The position numbers and the translations under genes were made by a program. Below are positions 12,090-58,884 of a stretch of 64,000 nucleotides of DNA, piece after piece (the first letter of the stretch is position 1; each line of letters starts with the position of its first letter). The DNA lies in contig CM022674.1 in assembly GCA_012295275.1 (NCBI GenBank), positions 17,174,001 to 17,238,000 on the forward strand. The letters run 5' to 3'. The DNA is from Chrysomallon squamiferum. Its lineage: Eukaryota > Animalia > Mollusca. The notes below the pieces were generated by a model. That model saw only the letters and a program-made list of their open reading frames with translations, did no database searches and had not been told where the DNA came from.

Positions 12090-12220
12090 AAAAACGTGGA
12101 ATAACACTAGTAAATCAGAGCAGCAGAACAGCTGAGAAACAGGAACCCACAGTCAGAACCTGCCCCAGTTACCCCATCACCACCCCCTAAAAAGAAGGAA
12201 AAGAACAAATCCAAAATGAG
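12090..12220 (+). CDS. Upstream exon of STAND-ANK gene copy A (partly 5'UTR; candidate ATG at 12216)
   Basis: tttag|aa acceptor and ATGAG|gtaag donor; ATG-AG|C joins in frame with the 12779 exon; paralogous to 62590-62722. The true start codon is uncertain. Confidence 0.55.
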
Positions 12221-12778
12221 GTAAGATTAATTAATTAGAACTATGTTTTTAGGTAACAGTATTATGAAATTGTGTTTTCTTGAGTATTTCTAAATAACAT
12301 GATCAAACACCTCTTTTTTAAAAATGGGGATATCTATTTTAAGCCTTTTTTATTTGATTACTTTAAAAAAATGTTTCAGGCATTTATTTATAGAACCAAA
12401 TTGAGAATACAGTCTATGAGTCAATGCTAGTATTAATATAAGGTACTAGATGTAGGTCTCTAGTAAAGTTTGCAAGATGTAGTAGATATTTGGATGAATG
12501 CCTGCTGATGTAATCTTGAGCTGTTTTCATTTTAGCAGTGCTTAACACCTGATGTATGAAATAGTTTGTACTGTTTGTGGGTAGGTTTAAATGAAACATC
12601 ACTTGTTGTCATTAAGACAGAGTAGAGAGTGAAGTGACTGCAGTGGGTTTCTTTTCTTTTTGTTATCTGACTGTTCCTAAATCTTATGTCTGACCCATAT
12701 AAAAGTAAATAAAATAAGTAAATAAAACAGTTGATTTCTTCCTTTCTATATAAACAATCATTATATTATTTTTTACAG

Positions 12779-12978
12779 CTCAGGGAATATGGATGACAAA
12801 AATGAGAGTTCAGAAGTTTCTTCTAACACAGCAGCTGTTTCTTCTGCAGAGACTGTGACAGCTGTGTCTCTCTTAGACACTATGACAAGTCTATCTCTCT
12901 CTGGCATCACATCTCAGTCTTCCTTTGACATCACTCGTACAGAACATCATTTACAACTACCTGTGTCACAAAGTCGTG
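12779..12978 (+). CDS. S/T-rich N-terminal exon of STAND-ANK gene copy A (SGNMDDKNESSEVSS...PVSQSR)
   Basis: tttacag|ct acceptor, cgtg|gtaatg donor; 200 bp, phase 2 to phase 1, open frame; paralogue at 61571-62040. Confidence 0.7.
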
Positions 12979-13498
12979 GTAATGCACACAGTATTTCAAT
13001 GTACTGATTACTTTTTTAGTAGGAAATTATTAAGAGTCAACATTATTTTTATATTTGTTATAATATAATATTTCAATATATTGCTTATTTTATTGATGGT
13101 AAATTCTAAACTGACAGAAGTACTATTTACATTGGTATAAATACACTCTTTCTATGTATTGTGCAGTTACTTCTTAGGCATTAGTAAATTGACACTTTTA
13201 AAAGTTACATTCATAATGAATTAAGTTTCAAGTATTTACGGCCTTTTTGTTTCACAGATTAAAACAGTAAAGCAAAATACACTCTAGTTACTGTTTTGTT
13301 GCTTCATCGAGACCATTATAATTAATCTTGTATTTACTGTTAAACATTTTAATACTTTAAAGTAATACTTATTTCATAGCACCTGCACATAATCAGTTAA
13401 AAACATTTTTAAATGATATATTGTTATATGCAATAACACTTTTAATAGATTGTATTAATACTGTATTCTGTCCATAAAAATGTATTTACTCTTCACAG

Positions 13499-13585
13499 AT
13501 ACTCAAATAATACAACTTGTACAACCAACAGTAAAAATACGTCACTGTGGAAATGTTCTATTAGGAAACAAAAACAAGTTAATTA
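13499..13585 (+). CDS. RHIM-like exon, copy A: (D)TQIIQLVQPTVKIRHCGNVLLGNKNKLI
   Basis: ttcacag|at ... atta|gtaagt; 87 bp, phase 1-1; core tetrad VLLG at 13555-13566; colinear with the VQIG exon of copy C. Confidence 0.75.
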
Positions 13586-16325: not shown

Positions 16326-16370
<45 letters not shown>

Positions 16371-16849: not shown

Positions 16850-16935
<86 letters not shown>

Positions 16936-19398: not shown

Positions 19399-20654
19399 CT
19401 GAAAATAACATTATAAATATAAAATAGACAATCGATATTTAAAAAATAGTAAGTATAAAATAATCTTGCCACTTGCTTAAAAAAACAGAAAAATACAGAA
19501 ATACATAGGGTTAGTTACCATCAGCATAGAATTGTAGTCTTAGTTATTAAACGTTGCAGAAAACTGAATGTGACACGATTATATTGTTTATCGTTACACT
19601 GACTTATTACACTATTATCTGCAGTTAGACATTTTTTCTCACCTTTGTTTTTTAGAAACTGCTTATAAAATTGTCATTTTCGTTATCTTATGTCAATATG
19701 CATGTTTTAGCAATAGCTGATCATATATACAAAAGCACATACACACACTCACACTCACACAAACACACACACACGCACACACTTACTTTTTATACTGTAT
19801 GTCCTTCATATAGCTACAAACACTTTTAGAAATAACACTTGTAGGCTGTGAGTTTAAGTCGAAAATGGAAGCTTTTCTTTTGTCTGCCTGTTTATTAGAA
19901 TATGCCTCAAAATACTCATTAGTATTTTTGTGTCAGAGACTGTGACCTGAACAACATCCAGACAAACATAGACAATACATACATACATGTATATATAAAC
20001 AATAAAAAACCCCATAAAAACACATATATGCAGACATTTAATATAAGGAATTTTAATTTTACACTGTTTTAAAACATATTGTTTTATTCAATAATACTAA
20101 CAAATCACAGATTTTATTCATATTGTGTGCAGTGGATGATCTGCATATGGATCTGAGAAATAATTATTGTAAGTTGTGAAATTGAACAATTTAATCCTGA
20201 AGCAATCAGATTCCTTATGGAAAACGTCATAACACATGTTAATGCTGGCCAATCAGTAATTTAAAAATCTCCCAAATCTGTGAGATCCGAAGCAGCCTTC
20301 ATAACACTCGATGGACAATTTGAAGAAACTGAAGTCATGGACTACCTAGGAGTGCTTATAATTAGGAACTAAATGTTTGAAGTTTATGATTTGTTAATAT
20401 TTATAAAATAATAATTAAAATAACATTCATAATAACAAATGTTACGCCAGCGGACTTTTGACTTATGTGCTTATGACGTCCCACCCAAACACACACACAC
20501 AGCAACACATACACACACACACGCACACACACACACACACACTATAAGTGCCATCAATCTTATCTAGATTTTCTTATTAAGATAATTCAGCATACATTAA
20601 TCAAGCCAATATATGTCATTATTTTCCCTTGCAACTACTGAAAAACATTAAAGA

Positions 20655-20713
<59 letters not shown>

Positions 20714-20934
20714 TGAACAATAAGTATTAGAATAGTGAGAAATAACAACAACAGTAGTTTTAATAGTAGTAGTAATAATTATAGTAAAATAAATCAGAAA
20801 GATATAATAATAATGTTATATGTTGACTGTTCCATGAATAAAGTACAAAGTAACAGTACATATCACTTTAATAATTCTCTTTTGCTCATCATCAATAATA
20901 TAAACTTACTTGTTTTATTCTTATATCATTTCAG

Positions 20935-20967
20935 CAAAGACTGATGAACGAGCGTCCCATATGAAAG
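20935..20967 (+). CDS. 33-bp linker micro-exon of the STAND-ANK gene (copy B), (T)KTDERASHMK(E)
   Basis: tttcag|ca ... aaag|gtataa; phase 1-1, in frame with the 21250 exon; same exon in copy C at 58852-58884. Confidence 0.7.
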
Positions 20968-21249
20968 GTATAATCTTATTTTATTTCATTGTAGTAGTTT
21001 TTTTTTACTTCTGTAAGATGTTAATTTATAAGAACGTAATCATTGTTACTTTTACACCATCTAAAACTGTGATATCATGGTATTGTCATTAAATTCTGAT
21101 CAAGTAAATTATAGCAAATAACTGCTGCTTTATTTTAAAACTTCACATCTGATGACTAGTTAAAAATTATATTATCTGTATTTAAATAGTAAAATATATT
21201 TAAAAGGTGTTAATAATAGATATTATTTTGTTTTAATGTTGTGATTCAG

Positions 21250-24200
21250 AGTCTACCAGGTCACAGTTAAACTCAGTTGACTGGAGAGTCTATGTTGAAA
21301 CAAGAGCAGAAGAAAGAGGTGTAACACTTTTGAAAAAGAATGGTGTTGTGATTGTAGTAGGATGTCCAGGTTCAGGAAAGACAACTCTAGGTCTGAACAT
21401 GATTAAACAGATAGAGAAAGAAGAAAAAATAGACTCTTACATCATGACTCATCACTCTGATTTCAAATGCATTCCTGTGTCTAAAGTTAAACCATGTATT
21501 GTTCTCATTGATGACATATTTGGTAAAACTAATCTTGTATTAGATTTTGTGTCGTGCTGGAAACAGCTATTTCCAGAGGTGCGGAGTCTTGTTAAAGATA
21601 AGCGTGTGAGATGTATTATTACTTTAAGAAAACAAATATTTAGAGAAGTTATAGCCAATTTGAAGGAATTTGATCTTTTCAATGAAAATAATCTTCTTGA
21701 CCTGCAGAACGATAAATGTTGTCTGAATTATGATGAGAAGTCGAAAATTCTAAACAAGTATCTGAAACAAAAGAATGTTACAATGAATGAATGGGATAAA
21801 GGGACAGTGATTTCCTGTTCATGTACAGAGTTAGGATTTCCTCAGGTGTGTGTGTATTATGTTAATTCAAGTGATGCACAGAATAGAGGAGTTACGTTTT
21901 TTAAGAATCCTGTAGAATATCTCACACAACAACTGGAAGATTTGAAAAATGATAAATTACCTGGTTCACAGATAAAGTACCTGGTTCTACTGCTGATGTT
22001 GTTCCAGCAAGGCAGTTTCAGCATTGATTTACTGGACCCATTTGAAAATAACTCTGACAGTCACATAATGAAATTAGTAAGACTGCTAGAGCAAGTCTGT
22101 CTGAGTCTGAAAAACACTGGTCTCACAGATATAAAGAAAACAGCTGATGAAATGTGTGGTACCTATCTGAAGTGTTCTGACAATAAATACACATTTATTC
22201 ACCAGTCAGTGTTTGACTCATTGTTTCTGACGTTTTCATCACAGTTTCCAAAGAAAGCAGCAGAGTTGCTAGAAATATGTCCTGTCTCCATGTTGTTAGA
22301 ATATGTTGTGACGCCTGGAGTGTCTAACAAAAGTCACATTACAATGACTGTGAAATCTAACAGCTTTGATGTTCTTGCTCGGAGATTTACTGACTTGTTG
22401 GCATCAAGCAATGCCGAATACATTATTTCACATCCGTCATTGAAAGATGAAGAGTTTGTGAAGTATCTCACAGAGAAAAAATACTTTAATGATAAATTGT
22501 CTGAAATACTGCATCAACAACTACATAAAGATCAACATAAACATTTGTGTATATCATCTGTAAACGTAGACAATCTTGATGAAATATTTAGCTATATTTC
22601 ATGTCTTCTTCATGATTATTCAAAATGTTCTATTTACATGTATCTGGATACTAAAAAACATTTTGTATTTTCATCATCTGTTCAAAGTGAGTGTATTGTC
22701 AAGGGATTAAGAACATTGTCAATTTTTTTCTCTGAATATCTGTGTAAAATGAAATTAACAAATCTGAAAAAAGAACTTTTGAGTATTTCTTGTTTGTTTG
22801 GTGATGAAGATGTTGTGAAAAAGTTGCTAAAATCAGGTGTTATTCCATCATTTGATACACTGACTGCAGCTGCTTGTTCCAAAACCGACAATACTACCAT
22901 ACTCAAAGAATTGTTACAGTGTGAAACAGAGATGAGATCGCATGACTATTCAGATCTCTTATTTGCTTCTATTTGTTCAGGGAATATGAAGATTGCATGT
23001 CTATTAGCTGGAAAGATACAAAATGAGAAACACAACAGTGAAATCAAGGAAAAAGCCATTAAACTGTTATTGGTTAGGTTCCATAGACAAGTAAGACTTG
23101 ATTCAAGAAAATGGCATTTTGGAAAGTCGAAGACTTCTGAAGTTGTTGATGTAAGCCATCTTTTTAAAAAACTGGTTACCATTGATATAATAAACAAAAT
23201 TAAACACATTGCTATTGTTGCTGCTTGTCAGAGTAATTCTCGTGTTATAAAAGAAATAGTAAAACTGAAACCTGATTGTTTAAATGATGAGAACAGAGAT
23301 AAAGTACTTTTAGCAGCAGCAGTATGGGGAGCCACTGACACAGTGAATTTTCTCATTGAGCAGAGATGTAATGATGGAGATGAGACCTGGAAGAAAAGTC
23401 AATTACTGAAAGTGGCAGTGATGTTTAACAGTGCAGATATTGTTCAGTGTCTTCTTGAAAAAGGAGCTGATCCAAATGTTAATGTAGCTGTTAATCAGAT
23501 ATGGATTCAGTTGTTTAAAGAAGAAATGGAATTTGAACTGTTGTTTGGTGTCAAAATTAATTTCGACATGTTGCCTTCATATACACCCCTCCATCTTTCA
23601 GTTCTCCGTGGTGACTTAGATATGATAAAATCACTAATAAAGAAAAATGCTGATGTTAATGCAGTAAACACTGAGGGAAAAATTCCACTTCATGAAGCTG
23701 TAAATGCAGTGACACACAGGAGGGAAGTAGCTTTGTTGTTACTGAAAAATGGTGCTCATACCGATATAAGAGATTACAACAAGAATTCAGCATTGCACAT
23801 AGCCTCTGAAATTGACATAGATGTTGTCAAAGAAGTAACAAAAAAGGGTGCTGAAATAAATGCAATTAACAGTGAACATAAAACTCCTCTTCATGTATCC
23901 TTGATATGTCACAGACCAGAAATAGCTTTATATTTACTAAACCAAGGAGCTGATCCTCATTTAACAGACAGTGATAACAATTCTGTTTTACACTTAGCAG
24001 CTAAACATGGAAATGAAGAAATTGTGACAGCACTGATTGAAAAAGGTGTTGATGTAAATGTAAAAAACAGGAAAGGTGAAAATCCTCTTTTTACAGCTCT
24101 GAATTATGACAAATTAGATTATTTAGATCTAGCGATGTCTTCTGTTAAGACAAAAATAGCTTTGGTTTTACTTGATCATGGAGCTGACGGTAATCTGAAA

Positions 24201-27200
24201 AATGACAATTCTATTTTACACTTAGCAGCTAAATGTGGAAATGCAGAAATTGTGACAGCACTGATTGAAAAAGGTGTTGACGTTAATGTTAAGAACAGTC
24301 AAGGTAAAACTCCTCTTTTTACAGCTGTTGTGTTTCAGCATCACAAAATAGTTTTGTATTTACTAAAACAAGGAGCTGATCCTCATTTAAGAGACAATGA
24401 TAACAATTCTGTTTTACACTTAGCAACCAAATGTGGAAATGCAGAAATTGTGATATCACTGATTGAAAAAGGTGTTGATGTTAATGTTAAGAACTGTCAA
24501 GGTGAAACTCCTCTTTTTACAGCTTTTAAGTTGAAGAAATACAAAATATGTTTGGATTTATTAAAACAAGGAGCTGATCCTAATTTAACAGACAATGATC
24601 ACAATACTGTTTTACACTTGGCAGCTGAATATGGAAGTCTAGAAATTGTGACAGCACTGATTGAAAAAGGTGTTGATGTAAATATTAAGAACAGTGAAGG
24701 TGAAACTGCTCTTACTAAATTTCTGAAATTCAACACATTTTATTATCTTGAATATCCAACTATGTCCTTTGATGAGACAAACGTAGCTTTGGTTTTACTA
24801 AAACATGGAGCTGATCCTAATATAATAGATAATGAGAACAATTCAGTTTTAGACTTAGCAGCTAAAAGTGGAAACAAAGAAATTGTGACAGCACTGATTG
24901 AAAAAGGTGCTGATGTAAATGTTAAGAACAGAAAAGGTGAAACTCCTCTTTTTACAGCTTTTAAGTTGAAGAAATACAAAATATGTTTGGATTTATTAAA
25001 ACAAGGAGCTGATCCTAATTTAACAGACAATGATCACAATACTGTTTTACACTTGGCAGCTGAATATGGAAGTCTAGAAATTGTGACAGCACTGATTGAA
25101 AAAGGTGTTGATGTAAATGTTAAGAACAGAACAGGTGAAACTCCTCTTTTTACAGCTGTTGTGTTTCAGCATCACAAAATAGTTTTGTATTTACTACAAC
25201 AAGGAGCTGATCCTCATTTAAGAGACAATGATAACAATTCTGTTTTACACTTAGCAACCAAATGTCGAAATGCAGAAATTGTGAAAGCACTGATTGAAAA
25301 AGGTGTTGATGTAAATGTCAAGAACAGAGAAGGTGAAACTCCTCTTGTTACATTTCTGAAATACTACCGTTTAAATGTTTCTCGTTACAATCTACATGTG
25401 TCCTCTTATATACCAAAACTAGCTTTGTTTTTACTGGATCATGGAGCTGATCCTAATTTAACAGACAATGATAACAATACTGTTTTACACTTGGCAGCTA
25501 AATATGGAAGTCTAGAAATTGTGAAAGCACTGATTGAAAAAGGTGTTGATGTAAATGTTAAGAACAGAGAAGGTGAAACTCTCCTGTTTACATATCTGAA
25601 ATACTACTATTTAGGTGATTGTCTTGACGATCTAGATGAGTCCTCTTATATACCAAAACTAGTTTTCGTTTTACTGGAACATGGAGCTGATCCTAATTTA
25701 ACAGACAATGATAACAATACTGTTTTACACTTTGCAGCTAAATGTGGAAATGCAGAAATTGTGACAGCACTGATTGAAAAAGGTGTTGATGTAAATGTTC
25801 AGAACAGAAAAGGTGAAACTGCTCTTTTTACAGCTTTTAAGTTGAAGAAATACAAAATATGTTTGGATTTATTAAAACAAGGAGCTGATCCTAATTTAAC
25901 AGACAATCATAACAATTCTGTTTTATACTTGGCAGCTAAATGTGGAAATGCAGAAATTGTGACAGCACTGATTGAAAAAGGTGTTGATGTAAATGTTAAG
26001 AACAGAAAAGGTGAAACTCCTCTGTTTACATTTCTGAAATACTACTGTTTAAATGTTTCTCGTTACGATCTATATGTGTCCCCTTATACACCAAAACTAG
26101 CTTTGTTTTTACTGGATCATGGAGCTGATCCTAATTTAACAGACAATGATAACAATACTGTTTTACACTTGGCAGCTAAATATGGAAGTCTAGAAATTGT
26201 GAAAGCACTGATTGAAAAAGGTGTTGATGTAAATGTTAAGAACAGAGAAGGTGAAACTCCTCTTTGTACCTTTCTGAAAGATTACTGTATAAGTGTTTGT
26301 TGTTACGATCTAGATGTGTCCTCTAATATACCAAAACTAGATTTGTTTTTACTGGAACATGGAGCTGATCCTAATTTAACAGACAATGATAACAATTCTG
26401 TTTTACACTTGGCAGCTGAAAGTGGAAATGCAGAAATTGTGACAGCACTGATTGAAAAAGGTGTTGATGTAAATGTTCAGAACAGAAAAGGTGAAACTCC
26501 TCTTTTTACAGCTTTTAAGTTGAAGAAATACAAAATAGGTTTGGATTTATTAAAACAAGGAGCTGATCCTAATTTAACAGACATTGATAACAATACTGTT
26601 TTACACTTGGCAGCTCAATCTGGAAATCTTGAAATATTGATAGCACTGATTGAAAAAGGTGTTGACGTTAATGTTAAGAACAGTCAAGGTGAAACTCCTC
26701 TTTTTACAGCTGTTGTGTTTCAGCATCACAAAATAGTTTTGTATTTACTAAAACAAGGAGCTGATCCTCATTTAAGAGACAATGATAACAATTCTGTTTT
26801 ACACTTGGCAGCTCAATCTGGAAATCTTGAAATATTGATAGCACTGATTGAAAAAGGTGTTGACGTTAATGTTAAGAACAGTCAAGGTGAAACTCCTCTT
26901 TTTACAGCTGTTGTGTTTCAGCATCACAAAATAGTTTTGTATTTACTAAAACAAGGAGCTGATCCTCATTTAAGAGACAATGATAACAATTCTGTTTTAC
27001 ACTTAGCAACCAAATGTCGAAATGCAGAAATTGTGAAAGCACTGATTGAAAAAGGTGTTGATGTAAATGTTAAGAACAGAGAAGGTGAAACTCCTCTTGT
27101 TACATTTCTGAAATACTACTGTTTAAATGTTTCTCGTTATGAGGTATATGTGTCCTCCTCTATACAAAAACTAGTTTTGGTTTTACTGGAACATGGAGCT

Positions 27201-27620
27201 GATCCTAATTTAACAGACAATGATAACAATACTGTTTTACACTTGGCAGCTAAATGTGGAAATGCAGAAATTGTGACAGCACTGATTGAAAAAGGTGCTT
27301 ATGTAAATGTTCAGAACAGAAAAGGTGAAACTCCTCTTTTTACAGCTTTTAAGTTTCAGAAATACAAAATAGGTTTGGATTTATTAAAACAAGGAGCTGA
27401 TCCTAATTTAACAGACAATGATCACAATACTGTTTTACACTTGGCAGCTAAATGTGGAAATGCAGAAATTGTGACAGCACTGATTGAAAAAGGTGTTGAT
27501 GTAAATGTTAAAAATGGTCAAGGTGAGACTCCTCTTGACAAAGCTAAGAGTAACCGAAGGGAAATTGTTTCCTATTTATTGGAGCATGGTGGTAAATGTA
27601 GTAACATAAATACATTTTGA
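21250..27620 (+). CDS. Giant terminal exon of NLR-like STAND NTPase (nSTAND3-type)-ankyrin repeat protein, copy B
   Basis: Uninterrupted 2096-aa ORF, extendable upstream to acceptor ttcag|ag at 21250 (ESTRSQLNSVDWRVYVETRAEERG...). Walker A GCPGSGKT at 21360-21383, Walker B IVLIDDIFG, sensor-like IITLR. The YVET...GxPGSGKT...hhhhDDhFG pattern is typical of nSTAND3. About 17 di-ankyrin modules follow (HLAAxxG.EIVTALIEKGVDVN / GETPLFT..LLxxGADPN). Confidence 0.93.
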
Positions 27621-29440
27621 TGTGTAACTGAAAGTTTCAGTTTAGTACATTACGTACACAGGCTATCACTTTAAATGGAAGATCAGCTAGTGAAAAGATT
27701 TTGAAGTTGTGCAGAAATTATACTTTTGTATAAAACTGATGTTCATAACAAACACAATACTCTAAATTTTGTTTGTAAATTCTATGGTACAAAGTCTTAA
27801 TGTTATCCTTCATCCTGAAATACAGTGATTTCTGATGTAGTTTCAGTTTGAGCTGCTTCATTTATGCACATTTTTGGTGTAATGTTGTGTATGTATTTAG
27901 CTGTGATAAATACTGTGTACAGCTTTAATTTTTCAATTCAAAAGTATAATTATTGATACATAGCCAGACCTCATTTTCAAAATAAGATCTGTGAGTAATT
28001 CATTGTCATGCAGAATTAAATACAGTGTAAATTTGTGTAAGTATATTGCTGTGTAGTCTGGTGTATATCTAGATACTGTAAATTGTTTCTATTCAGATAT
28101 TCCATTACTGTACTGTGCACTCTGCTGTTTCTGTTCAAATATTGTATTCATATATTGTATAGTTTGTGTTTCTATACAAATACTGTTACCATATTTTATA
28201 GCTGGTGCATCTTCCAACATTTTTTATTATCTTTTGTATTGAACATAACAAGAACTATTATAATACCTGTGGCTTTATGAAAATTTCACTTCATTTTTAA
28301 TTTTAGTGAAAAAAAAATGTTAAGAAATATTTTGTTGGCCAGCAATAATAAAACAACAGTAATACTGATTTCAATTTTGATCAGGTTATTCAGAAAGTGA
28401 AAAGTCAGTCAGTTTTTAAATCACATTTGTTATATTATTGATGATGATTTGCTATTAGACTTTTTATGTGTGAAAATATATGTTAAATAGGATGTTATAA
28501 TTAATGTTGTTTTTTAAAGTAGAGTGCAGAATATTTAATGTATATTTTTTAAGTTACAAAATTATTTTGCATTACTAAATATTTTACTATATTTAAATTA
28601 AGAAAAGTAGTATAGTGTAAAAAGAAAAAGTAATGTTGTGTAAAAGTGTTTTTGTTTTTTGGTTTCTTCTTTACACTATAGTTCTATAATACTAAATCCA
28701 AATTTTAATATATTTGTACTAAGTAAACTTCAATTTTCATTTGGAGTTTATGTACATTTTTTTTTACAAAATGTTTATTCATGTTTTAATATATAAATTT
28801 ATATGGTAAAATAAAATGTAATTCAAATTTTTTCTCTTATTAATTAGAAGATAAATTCATATAATGTTTACATTTCAAATAAATTATCAGAAAATACTAA
28901 CAAAATTGATAAAGCAAATGTAAATTTTCATTCATCTGATAGTTTTTATATATAGCTTTAATAATTACAAAATAATGAATAATAAAATAAATGTAAGTTT
29001 TAAGTAGGAATATTTATTTAATAATTGTGAAATAGGGAATAATTAATAAAATAAATGTGATTTTCAATTCGAAACATTTTTGGCTGACACTGAACTATCA
29101 GTGTAGATTTAAACTGATTTAATTTCAGATAAAATTTTAATACTATCTCTATTTTCTTTGTCAATAAGTTGTATCAAACAAGATTTTGTTTTTATTTTAT
29201 TTATTTATTTATTTTTGGTGATTAGTTATTTTTATTAAAAACAATTTTGAGGAATATATTGGACTTACACTGAGTGATTGTTTTGTATAAATATCTTGTA
29301 TTTATTTTACCTGTCTTGATGATTGTTTCCTTCCAGAAATTATTTTCTATTAATATAAGGATTTAATTTTATTGTGTTTGTTGCCATTATTATTTTTATT
29401 ATTATTATTATTATTATTATTACTTTTATTATTCTTATTC

Positions 29441-29480
<40 letters not shown>

Positions 29481-30302
29481 AGCTTTATAATGATTTACTT
29501 TTAATTTACTTGTTTGTTTTTCAGTGATGCAAAACAGAAAGTATTTTCTAATGTGCTAACCTTTGCTGCTTATGTCACTATTACATAAACTGTATGCAAT
29601 GTGTCAGTTTATGTATTGTTTTTTTAATACACTGATACAATTTATTTTGTTTGGGATATATGTATTGTTTATAATACTTGGCTATTGTTTTCAGTTAATA
29701 TTTTTCATACATTTATTTTATCTTCATACACTGAATAAGAAGAGAAAGACTTTTTTCTTTTTTCAAAAGAAATATATTTATATATTTATTTGTTTATTTA
29801 TATTATTATCATTATTATTAATTGGGAATATGTTTATTTATTCTTACTTCTATGTATTTAATCATTAGAATATGCTGATTCAGTTTGAATAGCAAATACT
29901 TGTATATGTTTTTAATTACACTGATTCTTTTTTTCTTATTTAATTTGCATGATAGAATGTTTTTACTATTTTTATTTTGTGAATCAACTAACTTTAGTTC
30001 AATCTTCAGTTTACATTTTTTCTATCAATTAACTGTTTCTTTAATTAATAGATGAAAATGAACAAATGGTGTTTGTCTATCACTTGTTACACATCCCATT
30101 TGTTGCATACCTAGTAGTAACAGCTGAAGTGTAATTAAGTCATTTCCAGTAATATTAGTGTAATAGTTACAGTGCTTTTCATTTTATTAATACAAAAATA
30201 CAACTTTATATATAGTAATAATAATAATAGAAAGAAAGAAAGAAAAAAGCTTAGGAAAATATCTTCTAGTACACAAAAGTAAAGATCCTAATTTTCATAT
30301 AG

Positions 30303-30348
<46 letters not shown>

Positions 30349-30556
30349 ATCTGTTATATCTGGTATATCTGTTCTTGTTTTTAATAATTTGAGGCACTAT
30401 AAATCATAGATAAATTATTTTTGAACTAAGATTGGATAAAACAAAATATGTTGATGATGATGATAAATAAATAAATAAAACATATCTTGAAGTATACATA
30501 ATGTATTTAGGCTATTTAATTGTATGTAAACAGCGTCATAAATTGTGGACTCTTAC

Positions 30557-30826
30557 CTACAGTACCTTTCCCACATGGGTAGATTCTGAATGCGAAACAA
30601 AGATTTCAATTTGACTTCCGATTTGTTCATGGTAGAGAAAATTATTTTATCACAGTTTTCACCTCCTCGTCTTCGGTCAAGTCATCAAGTTTTAGTTTCA
30701 CCAGTTCTACTGGTTGGTAACAGTCTAGAGGGAACCAGTTGTCTGGGAGAGTTGGTGAACGTGGAAACTTCTTGAACGAAAGACATCGATGAACTCTGCA
30801 TTTTATTATATAATAAAAATAAAAAT

Positions 30827-30907
<81 letters not shown>

Positions 30908-33326
30908 TAAACAGTTTAAAAAAAATGAAGTATGATATTAAGATATACGATAACGACAGACAAGGTTTTAAAACGTTAGGAGAAAAAAATATATAAAATA
31001 AGTAAAAATGAGGTGCAAAATATCGCAATCGAAAGTTATCGTTCTTGTACAATGTTTTCCTATTTACACTGTTTTTTTTTTGTCTCTGTACATCATCACT
31101 GGAAACAAAAAGCAGGTCTCCTCAGCAGTCGTCTTTGTTTTAATGTATTCAAATTTGTTTGGGTCATCTCCCTAAAATTTATTTTATACTGACATTTGTC
31201 TGTTTCAAAGTTGTAAAATGGTTGCCCAGCCAAGTACTTCAGTTCAAGAGTATATTGCAGACTTTCCTAAAATAAACACAATATGCTGTTTTATATAATA
31301 TTATAGAACGTGTAATGTGATATATCATATGATATATGTTATAGGGTAATGTAATTTCAGGTGTGTGTCATGACGTGTAGTTCTTTGACTATGTATGAAT
31401 GAGATATGTGATTATTTTTATTTGATAAATACTAATATATTAGAAACACAATGTTATAGGTATTAACATGAACATTTTAAACATCTCTTTCTTTCTGTCT
31501 TCTTACTTTTTTTTTAATTGATGCTTTATAAATTTTCATTTCTTTAAATATTAGTTATCTTTGCTACCTATAATATTGGTTATTGTAGATGTTTTATTAT
31601 TTTGTTTTTTTTTTAATTTTATTTTTGAAGTAAGGAAACAAATAAATAAATAAATAGAACAAATAAAAAATAAAATAAAACAAATAAGATGTTTAAGAAG
31701 AAAGCAGTTCAACAATAAAATAAAATGAATATTCACTGGTTCATAAGGCAAACAATTTCCAGAGTCTGCCTCAAAATACCAACACCACTGTGTGAGCTGT
31801 GTGAAGTTGTCTTCTTGTGCAGTGACATACGATGCTGTTGAGAGACGCTGAACTTTGACATCAACCACTCCCAGTTCCAAACAAACTAAAACTCTCATTA
31901 AGTGAAAATCAACAACAGTTGGAATGAAGTTACTGGCAAATGCAATAGAGAAATTCTTTGAAAATGAAAAAAAAAAAAATATCTGTCTATATATACGAGT
32001 GTAGATTATAGATATAGATGTAAATTTTAATTAGTGGCACAAAAAAAAAAGTAATAGTAGAATTGTAATACGATTAACCCATAACATGTTTTCATATTGT
32101 TGTGTAGTAGTAAGTAATAAAAATAGTAAAAGAGTATACGTAAAACAAGAGAGGAAATCTTCTGAGATGTCATAATGTACTATTATTTTTCAAAATATTT
32201 TTTGAATACATACGTTTTCAAAAAAGAGAAAAAACTTAGGACATTGGTTAGATCAGGATCCAAGGAGGACTGAACTGGTGGCCAATACCTTCTCAAGGAT
32301 GTACTCTGAAACAAAAGTAAAACTGCATTATCATATGTCACTGTTATTAAAACTTATACTTTATTCCATGTTCATTTATCGCTTCTGGTTGTTTTTTTAA
32401 TTCACCTCTATATTTCCTGTGTCTGACATCAGACTACAAAAGCTCTGCTCGATCATCTCATTCTCCACTATGTCAAAGTTGACCCATTTGTCACAAATCT
32501 CCATCTGCCACTGGTAATGTAGATATCTTTGTGTGTGGGTATTTGAATGTATTACACAGTGACTCCATACACATTTCTCATAAAGCAGACCTTCTATCTC
32601 GTTGCTGTAATTCATTATTTCAAGGCTGTCATTCACATCAAGTTGTTTCTGCTGTGAAAGTTGAGCTGGATGTGCTTTGACTTTGACATCAAGTTGTTTC
32701 TGCTGTGAAACTTGTACTGTATCTGCTTTGACTTTGACATCAAGTTGTTTCTGCTGAGAAACGTGTGCTGGATCTGCTTTCACTTTGACATCAAGTTGTT
32801 TCTGCTGTGAAACTTAATGTGGATTTGCTTTGACTTTTTACACGTAATTGTTCTTCCTGTGAAATTCGTGCTCTATCTCCTGTAACTTTCACGCCAAGTT
32901 TTTTTTTCTGTGCATCTTGTACTGGATAAGCTTTCCTCTTCATATCAAGTTGTTTCTGCTGTTTTTGAGACGGAACTCTATTAATTTTGACATCAAGCTG
33001 TTTTGCCTTTATACCTGTTTTAGATCTCCTTTTACTTTCAACCCAAGTTGTTTCTCTTCTAAATCTTCTATTGTATCTGCTGCGACTTTCCTGTCAAATT
33101 GTTCCTGTTCTGGAAGATCATCTTGGTAATACCACCCACTCGTTTCGAAGACGGCAATATCATCAAATTTATCAAAGTGAGATATACTTCTGAAATAAAA
33201 TATAACAGTGAATCAGTGATTTCTCTTAAATCTTCCACATTTTCATCATTAAATATAACATTGACTGTTTTTCTATTTTTAAATGCATTTTATATTGAAT
33301 TAACAAAACTTTGGTAAATTTGTATC
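30557..33326 (-). pseudogene. WWE-WWE-PARP pseudogene fragment, copy 2 (cut by the gap)
   Basis: Near-identical to copy 1 at an offset of about +13.98 kb, with the same stop codons. Confidence 0.8.
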
Positions 33327-50926: not shown

Positions 50927-53900
50927 TCAAAATGTATTTATGTTACTACCTTTACCACCATGCTCCAATAAATAGGAAACAATTTCCCTTCGGTTACTCT
51001 TAGCTTTGTCAAGAGGAGTCTCACCTTGACCATTTTTAACATTTACATCAACACCTTTTTCAATCAGTGCTATCAATATTTCAAGATTTCCATATTGAGC
51101 TGCCAAGTGTAAAACAGTATTGTGATCATTGTCTGTTAAATTAGGATCAGCTCCTTGTTTTAATAAATCCAAACATATTTTGTATTTCTTGAAACTTAAA
51201 AGCTGCAAAAAAGGAGTTTTCATCAGCACCTTTTTTTTCTGTTCTGAACATTTACATCATTGTCTGTTAAATTAGGCACCATGTTTTTCAATCAGTGCTG
51301 TCTAGATCGTAACAATTTCTGCTTTTTCCACTTTTTCTGTTTTATTTGCCAACCTTTGTAAAACAGTATTGTTATCATTGTCTGTTAAATTAGGATCAGC
51401 TCCATGTTCCAATAAAACCAAAACTAGTTTTTTTTTGTATGAGAGAAGGACACATATACCTCTGTCACAATTTCTGCATTTCCACATTTAACGAGTAAAA
51501 CAAACATTTAAAAGTAGTCAGCTCCATTTCAGTAAGAAATGTAACAAGAGGAGTTTCACCTTCTCTGTTCTTAACATTTACATCAACACCTTTTTCAATC
51601 AGTGCTTTCACAATTTCTGCATTTCGACATTTAGCTCCAAAGTGTAAAACAGTATTGTTATCATTGTCTGTTAAATTAGGATCAGCTCCTTGTTTTAATA
51701 AATCCAAACATATTTTGTATTTCTGAAACTTAAAAGCAGTAAAAAGAGGAGTTTCACCTTTTCTGTTCTGAACATTTACATCAACACCTTTTTCAATCAG
51801 TGCTGTCACAATTTCTAGACTTCCATACTGAGCTGCCAAGTGTAAAACAGAATTGTTATCATTGTCTGTTAAATTAGGATCAACCCCAAGTTCCAGTAAA
51901 ACCAAAGCTAGTTTTGGTATATTAGAGGACTTATCTAGATCGTCAGGACAAACACTTAAACAGTAGTCTTTCAGATATGTAAACAGAGGAGTTTCACCTT
52001 CTCTGTTCTGAACATTTACATCAACACCTTTTTCAATCAGTGCTATCAATATTTCAAGATTTCCAGATTGAGCTGCCAAGTGTAAAACAGTATTGTTATC
52101 AATGTCTGTTAAATTAGGATCAGCTCCTTGTTTTAATAAATCCAAACCTATTTTGTATTTCTGAAACTTAAAAGCTGTAAAAAGAGGAGTTTCACCTTTT
52201 CTGTTCTGAACATTTACATCAACACCTTTTTCAATCAGTGCTGTCACAATTTCTGCATTTCCACTTTCAGCTGCCAAGTGTAAAACAGAATTGTTATCAT
52301 TGTCTGTTAAATTAGGATCAGCTCCATGTTCCAGTAAAAACAAATCTAGTTTTGGTATATAAGAGGACTCATCTAGATCGTAACGACAACCACCTAAAAA
52401 GTAGTCTTTCAGATATGTAAACAGAAGAGTTTCACCTTTTCTGTTCTTAACATTTACATCAACACCTTTTTCAATCAGTGCTGTCACAATCTCTGCATTT
52501 CCATGTTCAGCTGCTAAGTGTAAAACAGAATTGTTATCATTGTCTCTTAAATTAGGATCAGCTCCTTGTTTTAATAAATCCAAACATATTTTGTATTTCT
52601 GAAACTTAAAAGCAGTAAAAAGAGGAGTTTCACCTTTTCTGTTCTGAACATTTACATCAACACCTTTTTCAATCAGTGCTGTCAATATTTCAAGATTTCC
52701 ATATTGAGCTGCCAAGTGTAAAACAGTATTGTTATCATTGTCTGTTAAATTAGGATCAGCTCCATGATCCAGTAAAAACAAAGCTAGTTTTGGTATATAA
52801 GAGGACACATATAGATCGTAACGACAAACATTTAAACAGTAGTATTTCAGAAATGTAAACAGAGGAGTTTCACCTTTTCTGTTCTTAACATTTACATCAA
52901 CACCTTTTTCAATCAGTGCTGTCACAATTTCTGCATTTCCACATTTAGCTGCCAAGTGTAAAACAGTATTGTTATCATTGTCTGTTAAATTAGGATCAGC
53001 TCCATGTTCCAGTAAAAACAAATCTATTTTTGGTATATTAGAGGACACATCTAGATCGTAACAACAAACACTTATACAGTAATCTTTCAGAAAGGTACAA
53101 AGAGGAGTTTCACCTTCTCTGTTCTTAACATTTACATCAACACCTTTTTCAATCAGTGCTGTCACAATTTCTGCATTTCCATGTTCAGCTGCTAAGTGTA
53201 AAACAGAATTGTTATCATTGTCTCTTAATTTAGGATCAGCTCCTTGTTTTAATAAATCCAAACATATTTTGTATTTCTGAAACTTAAAAGCAGTAAAAAG
53301 AGGAGTTTCACCTTTTCTGTTCTGAACATTTACATCAACACCTTTTTCAATCAGTGCTGTCACAATTTCTGCATTTCCATATTGAGCTGCCAAGTGTAAA
53401 ACAGTATTGTTATCATTGTCTGTTAAATTAGGATCAGCTCCATGATCCAGTAAAAACAAAGCTAGTTTTGGTATATAAGAGGACACATATAGATCGTAAC
53501 GAGAAACATTTAAACAGTAGTATTTCAGAAATGTAAACAGAGGAGTTTCACCTTTTCTGTTCTTAACATTTACATCAACACCTTTTTCAATCAGTGCTGT
53601 CACAATTTCTAGACTTCCATACTGATCTGCCAAGTGTAAAAGAGAATTGTTATCATTGTCTGTTAAATTAGGATCAGCTCCTTGTTTTAATAAATCCAAA
53701 CATATTTTGTATTTCTTCAACTTAAAAGCTGTAAAAAGAGGAGTTTCACCTTTTCTGTTCTGAACATTTACATCAACACCTTTTTCAATCAGTGCTGTCA
53801 CAATTTCTGCATTTCCATATTGAGCTGCCAAGTGTAAAACAGTATTGTTATCATTGTCTGTTAAATTAGGATCAGCTCCATGTTCCAGTAAAACGAAAAC

Positions 53901-56900
53901 TAGTTTTGGTATATAAGAGGACTCATCTAGATCGTCAAGACAAACATCTAAATAGTAGTCTTTCAGATATGTAAACAGAAGAGTTTCACCTTTTCTGTTC
54001 TTAACATTTACATCAACACCTTTTTCAATCAGTGCTGTCACAATTTCTAGACTTCCATACTGAGCTGCCAAGTGTAAAAGATAATTGTTATCATTGTCTG
54101 TTAAATTAGGATCAGCTCCTTGTTTTAATAAATCCAAACATATTTTGTATTTCTGAAACTTAAAAGCTGTAAAAAGAGGAGTTTCACCTTTTCTGTTCTT
54201 AACATTTACATCAACACCTTTTTCAATCAGTGCTGTCACAATTTCTGCATTTCCACATTTAGCTGCCAAGTGTAAAACAGTATTGTTATCATTGTCTGTT
54301 AAATTAGGATCAGCTCCATGTTCCAGTAAAAACAAATCTAGTTTTGGTATATAAGAGGACTCATCTAGATCGTCAAGACAAACATCTAAATAGTGTTCTT
54401 TCAGATATGTAAACAGAAGAGTTTCACCTTCTCTGTTCTTAACATTTACATCAGCACCTTTTTCAATCAGTGCTGTCACAATTTCTGCATTTCCACATTT
54501 AGCTGCCAAGTGTAAAACAGTATTGTTACCATTGTCTGTTAAATTAGGATCAGCTCCATGTTCCAGTAAAACCAAAACTAGTTTTTGTTTATAAAAGGCG
54601 TCCTCTAGATCGTCAAGACAAACATCTAAATAGTAGTCTTTCAGATATGTAAACAGAAGAGTTTTACCTTCTCTGTTCTTAACATTTACATCAACACCTT
54701 TTTCAATCAGTGCTGTCACAATTTCTAGACTTCCATACTGAGCTGCCAAGTGTAAAAGAGAATTGTTATCATTGTCTGTTAAATTAGGATCAGCTCCTTG
54801 TTTTAATAAATCCAAACATATTCTGTATTTCTTCAACTTAAAAGCTGTAAAAAGAGGAGTTTCACCTTTTCTGTTCTGAACATTTACATAAGCACCTTTT
54901 TCAATCAGTGCTGTCACAATTTCTGCATTTCCACATTTAGCTGCCAAGTGTAAAACAGTATTGTTATCATTGTCTGTTAAATTAGGATCAGCTCCATGTT
55001 CCAGTAAAACGAAAACTTGTTTTGGTATATAAGAGGACTCATCTAGATAGTAGTCTTTCAGATATGTAAACAGAAGAGTTTCACCTTTTCTGTTCTTAAC
55101 ATTTACATCAGCACCTTTTTCAATCAGTGCTGTCACAATTTCTATGTTTCCACTTTCAGCTGCTAAGTCTAAAACTGAATTGTTCTCATTATCTATTATA
55201 TTAGGATCAGCTCCATGTTTTAGTAAAACCAAAGCTACGTTTGTCTCATAAAAGGACATAGTTAGATATTCAACAAAATAAAATTTGTTGAATTTCAGAA
55301 ATTTAGTAAGAGCAGTTTCACCTTCAGTGTTCTTAATATTTACATCAACACCTTTTTCAATCAGTGCTGTCACAATTTCTACATTTCCATGTTTAGCTGC
55401 TAAGTGTAAAACAGAATTGTTATCATTGTCTGTTATATTAGGATCTCCTCCTTGATTTAGTAAATAAAAAAGTATTTGGTAATGCTGAAACTCAACAGCT
55501 GTAAAAAGAGGAGTTTCACCTTGACAGTTCTTAACATTAACATCAACACCTTTTTCAATCAGTGATATCACAATTTCTGCATTTCCACATTTAGCTGCTA
55601 AGTGTAAAATAGAATTGTAATCTTTCAGATTACCGTCAGCTCCATGATTAAGTAAAACCAAAGCTATTTTTGTCTTAACAGAAGACATCGCTAGATCTAA
55701 ATAATCTAATTTGTCATAATTCAGAGCTGTAAAAAGAGGATTTTCACCTTTCCTGTTTTTTACATTTACATCAACACCTTTTTCAATCAGTGCTGTCACA
55801 ATTTCTTCATTTCCATGTTTAGCTGCTAAGTGTAAAACAGAATTGTTATCAATGTCTGTTAAATGAGTATCAGCTCCTTGCTTTAGTAAATATAAAGCTA
55901 TTTTTGGTCTGTGACATGTCAAGGATACATGAAGAGGAGTTTTATGTCCAGTGTTAATTGCATTTATTTGAGCACCCTTTTTTATTACTTCTTTCACAAC
56001 ATCTATGTGAATTTCAGAGGCTATATGCAATGCAGAATTCTTGTAGTAATCTGTTATATGCGTATCAGCACCATTTTCCAGTAAGAACAAAGCTACTTCC
56101 TTCCTGTTTCTCACAGCATTTACAGCTTCATGAAGTGGAATTTTTCCCTCAGTGTTTACTGCATTAACATCAGCATTTTTCTTTATTAGTGATTTTATCA
56201 TATCTAAGTCACCACGGAGAACTGAAAGATGGAGGGGTGTATATGAAGGCAACATGTCAAAATTAATTTTGACACCAAACAACATTTCAAATTCAATTTC
56301 TTCTTTAAACAACTGAATCAATTTCTGATTAACAGCTACATTCACATTTGGATCAGCTCCTTTATCAAGAAGACACTGAACAACATCTGCACTGTTAAAC
56401 ATAACTGCCGCTTTCAGTACTTGACTTTTCTTCCAGGTCTCATCTCCATCATTACATCTCTGCTCAATGAGAAAATTCACTGTATCAGTGGCTCCCCATA
56501 CTGCTGCTGCTAAAAGTACTTTATCTCTGTTCTCATCATTTAAACAGTCAGGTTTCAGTTTTACTATTTCTTTTATAACACCTGAATTACTCTGAGAAGC
56601 AGCAACAACACCAATGTCTTTAACTTTGTTTATTATATCAATGGTAACCAGTTTTTTAAAAAGACGGCTAAGATCAACAACTTCTGAAGTCTTCGACTTC
56701 CCAAAATGCCATTTTCTTGAATCAAGTCTTACTTGTCTATGGAACCTAACCAATAACAGTTTAATGGCTTTTTCCTTGATTTCACTGTTGTGTTTCTCAT
56801 ATTTTATCTTTCCAGCTAACAGACATGCAACCTTCATATTACCTGAACAAATAGAAGCAAGTAAGAGATGTGAATAATCATTCAATTTCATCTCAGTTTT

Positions 56901-58566
56901 ACACTGTAACAGTTCTTTGAGTATGGTAACACTGTCGGTTTTGGAACAAGCAGCTGCAGTCAATGTTTCAGGTGATGGAATACAACCTGATTTTAGCAAC
57001 ATTATCACAACATCTTCATCACCAAACAAACAAGAAATATTCAAAAGTTCTTTTTTCAGATTTGCTAATTTCATTTTACACAGATATTCAGAGAAAAATC
57101 TTGACAATGTTGTTAATCCGTTCACAATACACTCACTTTGAACAGATGATGAAATTTCAAAATATTTTTTAGTATCCAGATACATGTAAATAGAACTCTT
57201 TGAATAACTGTCAAGAAGACATGAAATATTGCTAAATATTTCATCAAGATTGACTACGTTTACAGATGATATACACAAATGTTCATGTTTAGGTAGTTGT
57301 TGATGCAATATTTCAGACAATTTATTATTAAAGTATTTCTCCTCTATCAGATACTTGACAAACTCTTCATCTTTCAATGATGGATGTGAAATAATGTCTT
57401 TGGCATTGCTTGATGCCAACAAGTCACCAAATCTCCGAGCAAGAACATCAAAGCAGTTAGGTTTTACAGTCATTGTAATGTGACTTTTGTTAGACACTCC
57501 AGGCGTCACAACATATTCTAACAACATGGAGACAGGGACACATTTCTAGCAACTCTGCTGCTTTCTTTGGAAACTGTGATGAAAACGTCAGAAACAATGA
57601 GTCAAACACTGACTGGTGAATAAATGTGTATTCATTGTCAGAACACTTCAAATAGGTACCACACATTTCATCAGCTGCCTTCTTTATAGCTGTGAGACCA
57701 GAGTTCAGACCAGTATTCAGACAGGCTTTCTCTAGCAGTCTTACTAATTTCATTATGTGACTGTCAGAGTCATTTTCAAATGGGTCCAGTAAATCAATGC
57801 TGAGACTGCCTTGTTGGAACAACATCAGCAGTAGAACCAGGTACTTTATCTGTGAATAATTTATCAGTTTTCAAATCTTCCAGTTGTTGTGTGAGATATT
57901 CTACAGGATTCTTAAAAAACTTAACTCCTCTATTCTGTGCATCACTTGAATTAACATAATACACACACACCTGAGGAAATCCTAACTCTGTACATGAACA
58001 GGAAATCACTGTCCCTTTATCCCATTCATTCATTGTAACATTCTTTTGTTTCAGATACTTGTTTAGAATTTTCGACTTCTCATCATAATTCAGACAACAT
58101 TTATCGCTCTGCAGGTCAAGAAGATTATTTTCATTGAAAAGATCAAATTCCTTCAAATTGGCTATAATTTCTCTAAATATTTGTTTTCTTAAAGTAATAA
58201 TACATCTCACACGCTTATCTTTAACAAGACTCCGCACCTCTGGAAATAGCTGTTTCCAGCACGACACAAAATCTAATACAAGATTAGTTTTACCAAATAT
58301 GTCATCAATGAGAACAATACATGGTTTATCTTTAGACGCAGGAATGTATTTGAAATCAGAGTGATGAGTCATGATGTAAGAGTCTATTTTTTCTTCTTTC
58401 TCTATCTGTTTAATCATGTTCAGACCTAGAGTTGTTTTTCCTGAACCTGGACATCCTACTACAATCACAACACCATTCTTTTTCAAAAGTGTTACTCCTC
58501 TTTCTTCTGCTCTTGTTTCAACATAGACTCTCCAGTCAACTGAGTTTAACTGTGACCTGGTAGACT
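50927..58566 (-). pseudogene. Giant terminal exon of STAND-ANK gene copy C, frameshifted as assembled (pseudogene or consensus errors)
   Basis: ORFs 57794-58486, 57490-57825, 51465-57527 and 50927-51229 are consecutive pieces of a protein colinear with copy B. There is a 5-nt deletion at ~57856/57857, a 1-nt insertion at 57535-57537 and a scrambled stretch at ~51200-51530. About 22 di-ankyrin modules; acceptor atacag|ag at 58566. Confidence 0.85.
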
Positions 58567-58851: not shown

Positions 58852-58884
58852 CTTTCATATGGGACGCTCGTTCATCAGTCTTTG
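58852..58884 (-). CDS. 33-bp linker micro-exon, copy C
   Basis: Same sequence as 20935-20967, AG/GT intact. Confidence 0.7.

Follow-up and report, generated by a model that had tools for sequence, protein, structure and literature searches.

Mosaic di-ankyrin cassette arrays in nSTAND3 NLR-like genes of Chrysomallon squamiferum, probable immune receptors diversified by recombination

Two genes of C. squamiferum, B and C, carry arrays of near-identical two-ankyrin cassettes that are mosaics of one another, and by its sequence the array forms the C-terminus of an NLR-like gene of the STAND class (nSTAND3). We think it probable that B and C are multi-copy NLR-like genes whose mosaic arrays are reshuffled in the germ line and which likely recognize microbial or other non-self molecules. 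They are likely to be immune receptors diversified by recombination because the cassette orders are shuffled, the inserts change fast, an ATP-switch domain is present, and C has a predicted amyloid motif. To our knowledge, molluscs have no rearranging receptors of the vertebrate kind. Mollusc STAND-ankyrin genes are many and mostly annotated as uncharacterized, and the locus points to a specific way, open to testing, in which an animal could diversify its receptors quickly.

Gene structure, the nSTAND3 region and the predicted RHIM exon

The window, meaning the whole 64-kb stretch of DNA that was analyzed, holds B, C, and the 5' exons of a third copy, A. The features are as follows.

12090..13585, + strand: 5' exons of the third copy, A; the one at 13499-13585 is RHIM-like and has a VLLG core
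19612..33326, + strand: tandem unit containing B, period 13,977 bp
20935..20967, + strand: 33-nt exon of B, phase 1 to phase 1
21250..27620, + strand: terminal exon of B, one open frame that encodes, in this order, an nSTAND3 NTPase, a helical/winged-helix region, ankyrins that are degenerate and divergent, and the array
23946..27620, + strand: di-ankyrin cassette array of B, 16 cassettes and a capping unit when split at the GADP linker
50927..58566, - strand: terminal exon of C, nSTAND3 to array, broken in the assembly by two frameshifts and a garbled stretch
50927..55877, - strand: cassette array of C, 19 clean cassettes, a garbled L and K, and a cap
58852..58884, - strand: 33-nt exon of C
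60963..61049, - strand: predicted 87-nt exon of C, RHIM motif with a VQIG core, PF12721 match, phase-keeping GTAAGT donor
61571..62040, - strand: predicted Ser/Thr/Glu-rich exon of C with 11 copies of a 9-residue repeat
62590..62722, - strand: predicted upstream exon of C, with the likely start codon at its 3' end

The open frame of B runs for 2,127 codons. A preliminary description had called the system intron-free, which is true of the array, contained in one exon, but not of the gene, which has at least four exons upstream of the array-bearing exon in a chain of compatible splice phases. The most upstream predicted exon of C is likely mostly untranslated, since in A the paralogous exon carries a 2-nt indel, with stop codons upstream in that frame. 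The Ser/Thr/Glu-rich exon matched no family above cut-off in a Pfam scan. The terminal exon of A likely lies in the gap at 15769-15968. Sequence 15986-19340 recurs at 29963-33326 with 10 mismatches, and the likeness between B and C begins at 19612/60216. The tandem unit of B therefore starts within the intron that follows the RHIM exon and has no RHIM exon of its own, and B is without one in the present assembly. The two frameshifts in C are a 5-nt deletion near 57857 and a 1-nt insertion near 57535. Around 51590-51190 the sequence is garbled: across 400 aligned columns there are 8 mismatches and 18 small gaps, which add about 98 bases, so the final three units of C were read through noise.

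In RNA run X7, a variant of the 33-nt exon was joined to the terminal exon in 4 contigs (loose end at 21248). Intron depth was near 0 in both RNA runs, and family members were present and spliced.

The region upstream of the array matched nSTAND3 (PF20720) at 91 bits against a cut-off of 27.2 (E 8e-26). Columns invariant in 12 aligned proteins were those that we take to be Walker A, the Walker B Asp (D87), T124/R126 (T-x-R), GFP, and F315-H317-S319 (F-x-H-x-S). A model of the NTPase region had a pLDDT of 83 and the order NBD-helical-winged-helix. Its fold matches were weak, the best at E 5e-8; besides NB-ARC and NACHT structures they included Cdc6/ORC and other AAA+ ATPases. The nearest ESM Atlas cluster was 97% PF20720, with Mollusca as the commonest phylum. 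NACHT (PF05729) was absent from the 20 families listed for B at E up to 0.1. The repeats are ankyrin only, with no leucine-rich repeats, and the genes thus fall outside the strict animal NLR definition of NACHT plus LRR.

The predicted RHIM exon of C matched PF12721 at 20.3 bits, barely above the cut-off of 20 (E 3.9e-4), and its splice phases fit the rest of the gene model. No Pfam RHIM match was found for the VLLG exon of A or in a scan of 15 whole relatives; motif-like stretches picked out by eye in five relatives likewise had no Pfam match. A PDB sequence search returned no RHIM match, and no partner effector with a matching amyloid motif was found within the window. The preliminary description had overlooked both the nSTAND3 switch and the predicted RHIM exon of C.

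Cassette composition and tests of selection

Split at the GADP linker, the array of B read L V K L K V L L K L L K V V L K cap, which matches the earlier order and count of 17 units exactly. The array of C read L V L L K L L K L K L K L L K L K L K, with the garbled L and K next and the cap at the end; these 22 units, the last ones garbled, agree with the previous order and the estimate of about 22. The inserts and V and K motifs quoted in the preliminary description were also present in the translations. The plan is one conserved first repeat followed by a second repeat of three classes (K, V, L). There were 36 clean cassettes (12 K, 5 V, 18 L, and 1 cap), and every length was divisible by three. 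The 198 bp claimed for the short types was accurate for K, and V spanned 192-198 bp; L cassettes were 219-240 bp (13 of them at 240), none reaching the approximately 243 bp once given. First repeats had a mean nucleotide identity of 91% over 561 pairs, with 29 of 34 distinct, and all 12 K and all 13 full-length L cassettes differed from each other. Repeat conservation was measured as windowed self-identity (at least 85% over at least 100 aa), and 889 residues in B and 1,172 in C lay inside such windows.

Variation was focused at HLAA-xx-G, as had been proposed, with nine AA-xx pairs that include KS beyond the eight already listed. Amino-acid entropy at nine positions that we take to be of DARPin type was 1.01 bits compared to 0.47 overall (p=0.0004), so these positions are more variable than the array as a whole. 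The L insert is a 14-residue segment rich in Tyr, Asp, Ser, and Cys. In a 452-aa array model, all four inserts were low-confidence loops following a lengthened helix 1, and ankyrin stacking suggests that they would sit along one edge of the solenoid.

Pooled L inserts had 34 replacement and 3 silent changes (p=0.016 against the mutation spectrum of paralogous non-coding DNA) and an omega of 4.2 (LRT p=0.005), a tree-based value of the kind that recombination inflates. C inserts gave 25:1 (p=0.009), B inserts alone gave 22:3 and were not significant (p=0.13), and insert codons found in two or more cassettes gave 14:1 (p=0.10). The insert signal leans on C, the worse-assembled copy. The classic helix-1 and hairpin binding positions, including the 'xx' residues, were variable, but positive selection there was not significant (omega 2.0, p=0.21). 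Replacement-biased variation, as anticipated earlier, was supported for the pooled inserts and did not reach significance at the helix-1 positions.

Several of these values would be accounted for by neutral concerted evolution in a gene family that is decaying or under weak constraint, its inserts varying since loops tolerate change. B and C had a pN/pS of 0.74 outside the array, indistinguishable from 1, and constraint on the scaffold was not significant (omega 0.62, p=0.13). The frameshifts of C, the missing 5' exons of B, and the non-significant insert test in B fit the same explanation. However, neutral turnover would give an omega near 1 in the inserts, where we observed 4.2, and does not readily explain why B has kept its whole frame open, why no clean cassette breaks the reading frame, or why spliced family members occur in the RNA runs. 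Moreover, the pattern of variable positions in abalone relatives is the same as in the window. We therefore regard neutral turnover as improbable, and it is the best placed of the alternatives.

Exchange among cassettes

The cassettes are mosaics. A near-site incompatibility test was significant for first repeats (p=0.0004), for whole L cassettes (p=0.0002), and for B alone (p=0.0013), in keeping with the recombination-driven array of the preliminary description. Of 6 per-gene subsets, 3 were significant; the 3 that were not had 5-7 sequences each. Within the first repeat, sites in codons 5-22 follow the preceding second repeat, and those in codons 36-40 follow its own second repeat; the exchanged unit is offset from the cassette as drawn before. 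We infer that exchange points likely lie in helix 2 of the first repeat, which is invariant. With crossovers mostly there, a second repeat would carry along the beginning of the first repeat that follows it, and the register of the solenoid would be kept. B and C share 8 exact tracts of at least 120 nt (120-202 nt) at different array positions, several of them non-collinear.

Could the order differences and mosaicism be largely an artefact of assembly or polishing, with B possibly a mis-placed haplotype of C? Two 200-N gaps flank the contig of B, the contig ends are 3.4-kb direct terminal repeats, the flanks of B and C are 99-100% identical, and the tail of C resembles a failed consensus. Nevertheless, exact repeats inside B reach at most 211 nt and the K and full-length L cassettes are all distinct, unlike a collapse, and the recombination signal is present in B alone. 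B and C also diverge by 4-8% across 2 kb of coding sequence, and their DNA differs beyond the shared flanks. Many more cassette types occurred in four independent public runs from 2 studies, all of which contained L-type inserts with other letters and further second-repeat types attached to the scaffold. Were B and C alleles, their order difference would be a real allelic polymorphism. We consider an artefact slightly less probable even than neutral turnover.

In all four runs, scaffold depth was about 400-1,100 times that of one insert, although contig depth sums are a rough sign and not copy numbers. Paralogous contigs numbered hundreds to thousands and were most often 90-95% alike. Metagenome contigs gave 210 pattern matches and 0 confirmed relatives. 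Somatic rearrangement of the cassettes, which the preliminary description had thought possible and which would equip each animal with a repertoire at the level of its cells, is quite unlikely. In its favor are the instability of near-identical tandem units, the somatic change of such domains that the available text of PMC13449251 cites for Podospora, and the high depth ratios. Against it, 0 of 89 tblastn HSPs in the window lay outside B and C to serve as donor cassettes, there is no incomplete germline gene, the contigs point to a large germline family able to explain the diversity, and contigs are unable to reveal somatic variants.

Proposed mechanism, relatives, and known systems

We favor germ-line reshuffling, which would proceed by unequal crossing-over and gene conversion with crossovers mostly in the first repeat's invariant helix 2. 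The invariant helix would be the likely crossover zone, and the length-variable loops would bear the selected variation. As modeled, the insert may extend helix 1 and form a flexible loop along the edge where the 'xx' residues lie, giving an interchangeable binding ridge. By analogy with fungal NWD2/PNT1 and with plant and animal NLRs, a bound ligand would release the STAND switch and the protein would oligomerize; clustered RHIM motifs would then seed an amyloid, to which a death or NF-kB effector would be recruited. A far bolder idea, which we put forward as a long shot, is that snails hold a natural loop-ankyrin library of tens of RHIM-nSTAND3 receptors and hundreds of interchangeable cassettes, rearranged within an individual and between generations, with tandem terminal-exon units like B spliced to a shared RHIM head. 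If true, this would be an adaptive-like intracellular repertoire wired to amyloid cell-death signaling.

Relatives with nSTAND3 and ankyrins were found in Gigantopelta aegis, Haliotis, Mytilus, and oysters. Repeat conservation was compared across 24 proteins, hand-picked from search matches and enriched for ankyrin-rich proteins (the 'Haliotis' label of protein P0113 comes from an incomplete name). Five G. aegis proteins were 42-44% identical to the NTPase of B over 400 aa, and conserved repeats were found in 0 of 7 proteins of that species. In the Haliotis members the di-ankyrin units are 68 residues long, and a short insert of variable sequence separates helix 1 from helix 2. The abalone proteins share the design of B and C, with inserts of a few residues compared to up to 14 here, and their arrays are only about 32% identical to that of B. 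The system is therefore not unique, as abalone carries an analogous array. A first tree (10 rows) left the key fork unsettled; a second (14 rows) grouped B with G. aegis at a support of 89/93. This is below the starred level, and an independent origin of the abalone and window arrays is therefore only suggested. The cassette design may have arisen more than once, since it recurs in abalone with non-conserved relatives in between.

As far as the available parts of the report by Dyrka et al. 2014 (PMC4986451) go, fungal HET-E/HNWD and Podospora ANK-type NLRs combine a STAND NTPase with near-identical C-terminal repeats. B and C share both features with these high-internal-conservation NLRs, along with differences in repeat number, mosaic repeats, and, on the pooled insert data, replacement-biased variation near the predicted binding face. 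The likeness to HET-E drawn in the preliminary description gains from the STAND NTPase. B and C differ in being animal genes with nSTAND3 rather than NACHT or NB-ARC, in having a two-repeat cassette of three length classes as the unit, and in where the strongest selection signal falls, which is a loop insertion and not single positions on the concave face. Allorecognition has been shown for fungal NLRs; for B and C a recognition role is proposed. A survey of high-internal-conservation NLRs counts nSTAND3 among the ATPases and, in its accessible text, apparently finds the pattern in animals too (PMC13449251); that text contains no mollusc example, no di-ankyrin insert classes, and no animal selection or recombination test.

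Excerpts on the amphioxus RHIM-NACHT-repeat protein BF82280 (Kajava et al. 2014, PMC4262963) and on the fungal amyloid-signaling NLRs NWD2/PNT1 (PMC5485727) describe, as predicted for C, a short amyloid-type motif in a low-complexity N-terminus before a STAND NTPase and repeats. On the same excerpts, C is set apart by nSTAND3 and its shuffled ankyrin array. By analogy, the RHIM motif suggests fungal-style amyloid signaling.

Lamprey VLRs owe their diversity to interchangeable repeat modules. In contrast to them, the array of B is a complete open frame, with no outside donor cassettes in the window and no sign of programmed assembly. Brown-algal exon-shuffled receptors also diversify through interchangeable repeat modules, according to the available text of PMC13449251; here the whole array lies in one 6.4-kb open frame and not in one repeat per exon. 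A literature search, in which subscription papers were thinly covered, found no description of cassette shuffling in mollusc nSTAND3-ankyrin genes. Shuffled near-identical-repeat NLRs are already known in fungi and have been surveyed in animals; B and C depart from them in inserts that vary in length and show a selection signal, and C also in its predicted RHIM head.

The best fold matches of the array were DARPins. These engineered proteins have a consensus-like scaffold with variable helix-1 and hairpin positions, and their loop-grafted form carries its loop in the beta-hairpin. The arrays of B and C have the same kind of scaffold and variable positions, but they are natural and place a long loop between helix 1 and helix 2 rather than in the beta-hairpin, which makes them a natural model for loop-extended ankyrin binders.

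Organization of the locus

Genes B and C, two copies of an nSTAND3-ankyrin NLR-like gene, and A, a third copy represented by its 5' exons, lie in AT-rich eukaryotic DNA (~30% GC). Their main features were as follows.

12090-13585: 5' exons of A, resembling those of C, ahead of the first gap
13499-13585 (+): RHIM-type exon of A
15769-15968: gap of 200 N
21237-27620 (+): gene B, a single open frame of 2,127 codons
33327-33526: gap of 200 N
61049-60963 (-): RHIM-type exon of C, on the strand opposite to B

Gene B is inside a 13,977-bp tandem unit that starts within the intron following the RHIM exon, so that B, as assembled, lacks a RHIM exon. B may rely on the 5' exons of A, or it may be a 5'-truncated duplicate. 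The same 3.4 kb (15986-19340 and 29963-33326, 10 mismatches) was found at both ends of B's contig, which implies that 14-kb units are arrayed in tandem, each carrying the last two exons only, and that the gaps conceal part of this array.

B and C are also arms of an inverted duplication with flanks 99-100% identical. Introns and 3' flanks differed by 0-1%, less than the coding sequence (21995-24087 in B compared to 57826-55736 in C), which was 92-96% identical, or 4-8% different. Near-identical flanks around a diverged coding patchwork fit gene conversion between the arms, and this comparison of sequences suggests that such conversion has been patchy.

In this assembly two indels break the frame of C, one a loss of 5 nt near 57857 and the other a gain of 1 nt near 57535; an RNA contig from some paralogue had an in-frame 6-nt loss at the first of these sites. 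The tail of C, with ~98 extra bases spread over 18 small gaps, looks like a failed consensus. B was cleaner, with an unbroken frame and a longest internal exact repeat of 211 nt.

Downstream of both arms was a broken gene fragment in three copies (18410-19200 and 32400-33300, both minus strand, and 38971-39715, plus strand). It contains repeats of 17 residues and matches the WWE domain weakly, below cut-off (E 9e-4); judged from this match, it is perhaps a PARP- or Deltex-type remnant. Degenerate TTAGGG-rich satellite-like arrays, ~70% alike and in opposite orientations, occupied 873-2086 and 33527-35000.

Cassette arrays and exchange

In each cassette a conserved first ankyrin of 43 codons precedes a second one, which belongs to class K, V or L. 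When B was cut at the GADP linker, the same 17 units emerged in the same order as in the preliminary description. The ~22 units proposed for C were counted as 22: 19 clean cassettes, one L and one K whose sequence is garbled, and the terminal cap. Mean nucleotide identity was 91% among first ankyrins, and the second halves were 97% (K) and 87% (L) identical. L second repeats were 7-14 residues longer, and Tyr, Asp, Ser, Leu, Val and Cys made up 172 of the 208 insert residues in 13 full-length L repeats.

Recombination was assessed by comparing the incompatibility of neighboring informative sites to that of permuted sites. Incompatibility was lower than permuted for first repeats (0.016 compared to 0.131, p=0.0004) and for whole L (p=0.0002) and K (p=0.009) cassettes; L second halves alone gave no significant result (p=0.10). 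Within single genes, 3 of 6 subsets were significant, including B first repeats (p=0.0013). Early in the first repeat, sites follow the class of the preceding second repeat; late in it, they follow that of their own second repeat, and codons 30-34 in between are invariant. This flip in class tracking points to exchanges that would have fallen mostly within the invariant helix. Identical stretches of 120 nt or more occurred 5 times inside B, 6 times inside C and 8 times between the two genes, several of them at non-matching array positions. Germ-line shuffling of cassettes is well supported; somatic shuffling, which had been raised as possible, found no support.

Parts of B were present in nine sequencing runs of one organism from three studies, and contigs were compared for four of these runs, from two studies. 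The stretch before the array matched 499, 784, 1,568 and 2,890 contigs, mostly 90-95% alike, indicating many paralogues. For one cassette, depths, which are rough in contigs where cassette order is not visible, rose to 17,240, 15,894, 25,644 and 1,316,664 in scaffold bins and were 29, 19, 62 and 1,165 in insert bins. Loose contig ends carried other second-repeat types. The 30 insert substitutions among those listed, some derived from gapped alignments, comprised 27 replacements, 1 silent change and 2 stops if taken alone.

Variation, selection and structure

Entropy in the first repeat was 1.01 at nine positions, which we take to be equivalent to those randomized in DARPins, compared to 0.47 overall (p=0.0004), bearing out the proposed clustering of variation at such sites. 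A signal of positive selection appeared in the L inserts of both genes taken together, but not at the DARPin-type positions, where omega (2.0) was not significantly different from 1. In the 21-codon stretch from the end of helix 1 through the insert, the minimal changes comprised 34 replacements and 3 silent ones (p=0.016 against the spectrum of 171 non-coding A-C substitutions), and a codon model gave an omega of 4.2 (LRT p=0.005), a value that recombination can inflate. Ratios were 22:3 for B alone (p=0.13), 25:1 for C alone (p=0.009), and 14:1 for codons present in at least 2 cassettes (p=0.10). Selection on the inserts is moderately supported. Neither the array scaffold (omega 0.62) nor B compared to C outside the array (pN/pS 0.74) differed significantly from 1.

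A six-cassette model formed a regular solenoid (pLDDT 79.8) with DARPins and ankyrin-B/R as top fold matches. In all 4 of its L cassettes, helix 1 was extended, reaching 12-15 residues, and led into a loop modeled at pLDDT <50. Ankyrin repeats stack with equivalent positions aligned along the solenoid, and the insert begins where the first repeat has its variable pair after HLAA; all inserts would therefore lie along one edge.

Predicted head and relatives

B residues 19-177 matched nSTAND3 (E 8e-26), and the Walker A, Walker B Asp, T-x-R, GFP and F-x-H-x-S motifs were invariant in an alignment with 11 homologues. The NTPase region was modeled confidently (pLDDT 83); its matches to NB-ARC and NACHT structures were weak and mixed with other AAA+ ATPases.

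Four exons with compatible splice phases were predicted 5' of the terminal exon of C. The first is the likely start exon and the second is rich in Ser, Thr and Glu; the other two are 87 and 33 nt long. Intron depth was near zero in both RNA runs, and four contigs of one run (X7) had the terminal exon joined to a variant of the 33-nt one. The 87-nt exon matched Pfam RHIM at 20.3 bits, just over cut-off; the same search with the RHIM-like exon of A gave no match. These exons differ at 17 of 84 nt (16 replacement), compared to 11% divergence in adjacent introns, and their cores read VLLG in A and VQIG in C; by sequence, they are possibly diverging in signaling specificity. The Ser/Thr-rich exon contains a coding repeat of 27 nt, present in 11 copies in C (61680-61987) and 2 in A (12832-12887), which gives the same protein a second length-variable region.

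For the N-terminal region, the closest relatives with a species name were proteins of Gigantopelta aegis (36-37% over 895 aa; 42-44% over 400 aa), which makes a gastropod the likely source of the DNA. Among 24 hand-picked proteins, conserved arrays (85% identity over 100 aa) were found in 2/2 from the window, 4/6 from Haliotis, 1/1 from Mytilus and 2/2 cockroach NACHT proteins, and in 0/7 from G. aegis, 0/4 from oyster, 0/1 from Batillaria and 0/1 other. Di-ankyrin units of ~68 residues numbered 26 in H. rufescens and 14 in H. cracherodii, varying at the equivalent of the pair after HLAA and in a short insert between helices 1 and 2. An NTPase tree united B with G. aegis (89/93); the abalone arrays were joined there by an H. 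asinina protein that lacks a conserved array (100/99). These groupings suggest repeated gain or loss of conserved arrays.

Fungal NLRs are described as having conserved, positively selected and number-polymorphic ANK repeats (Dyrka et al. 2014, PMC4986451, in part). NLRs of that type, nSTAND3 counted, are reported across life, animals included, in the portion available of PMC13449251, a survey that may include mollusc cases. Excerpts of other sources cover an amphioxus protein of RHIM-NACHT-repeat type (Kajava et al. 2014, PMC4262963) and STAND and ankyrin expansions in bivalves (PMC8195603). No description of a mollusc nSTAND3-ankyrin shuffled-cassette system was found in the literature searched. 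The arrays of B and C are a real feature and would belong to an NLR-like receptor diversified by recombination in the fungal style, but in an animal; what sets it apart from known systems of this kind is that its loops vary in length and are interchangeable and that a RHIM head is predicted.

Cockroach NACHT-ankyrin proteins (P0022, P0020 and other insect matches) also had near-identical ankyrin arrays, those of P0022 being two-repeat units without inserts. Six other homologues (P0082, P0017, P0057, P0031, P0138 and P0140) carried short Gly/Asn/Val-rich N-terminal stretches directly ahead of the NTPase; these matched no Pfam family and by eye resembled amyloid-signaling motifs, the fungal forms of which are treated in PMC5485727 (in part).
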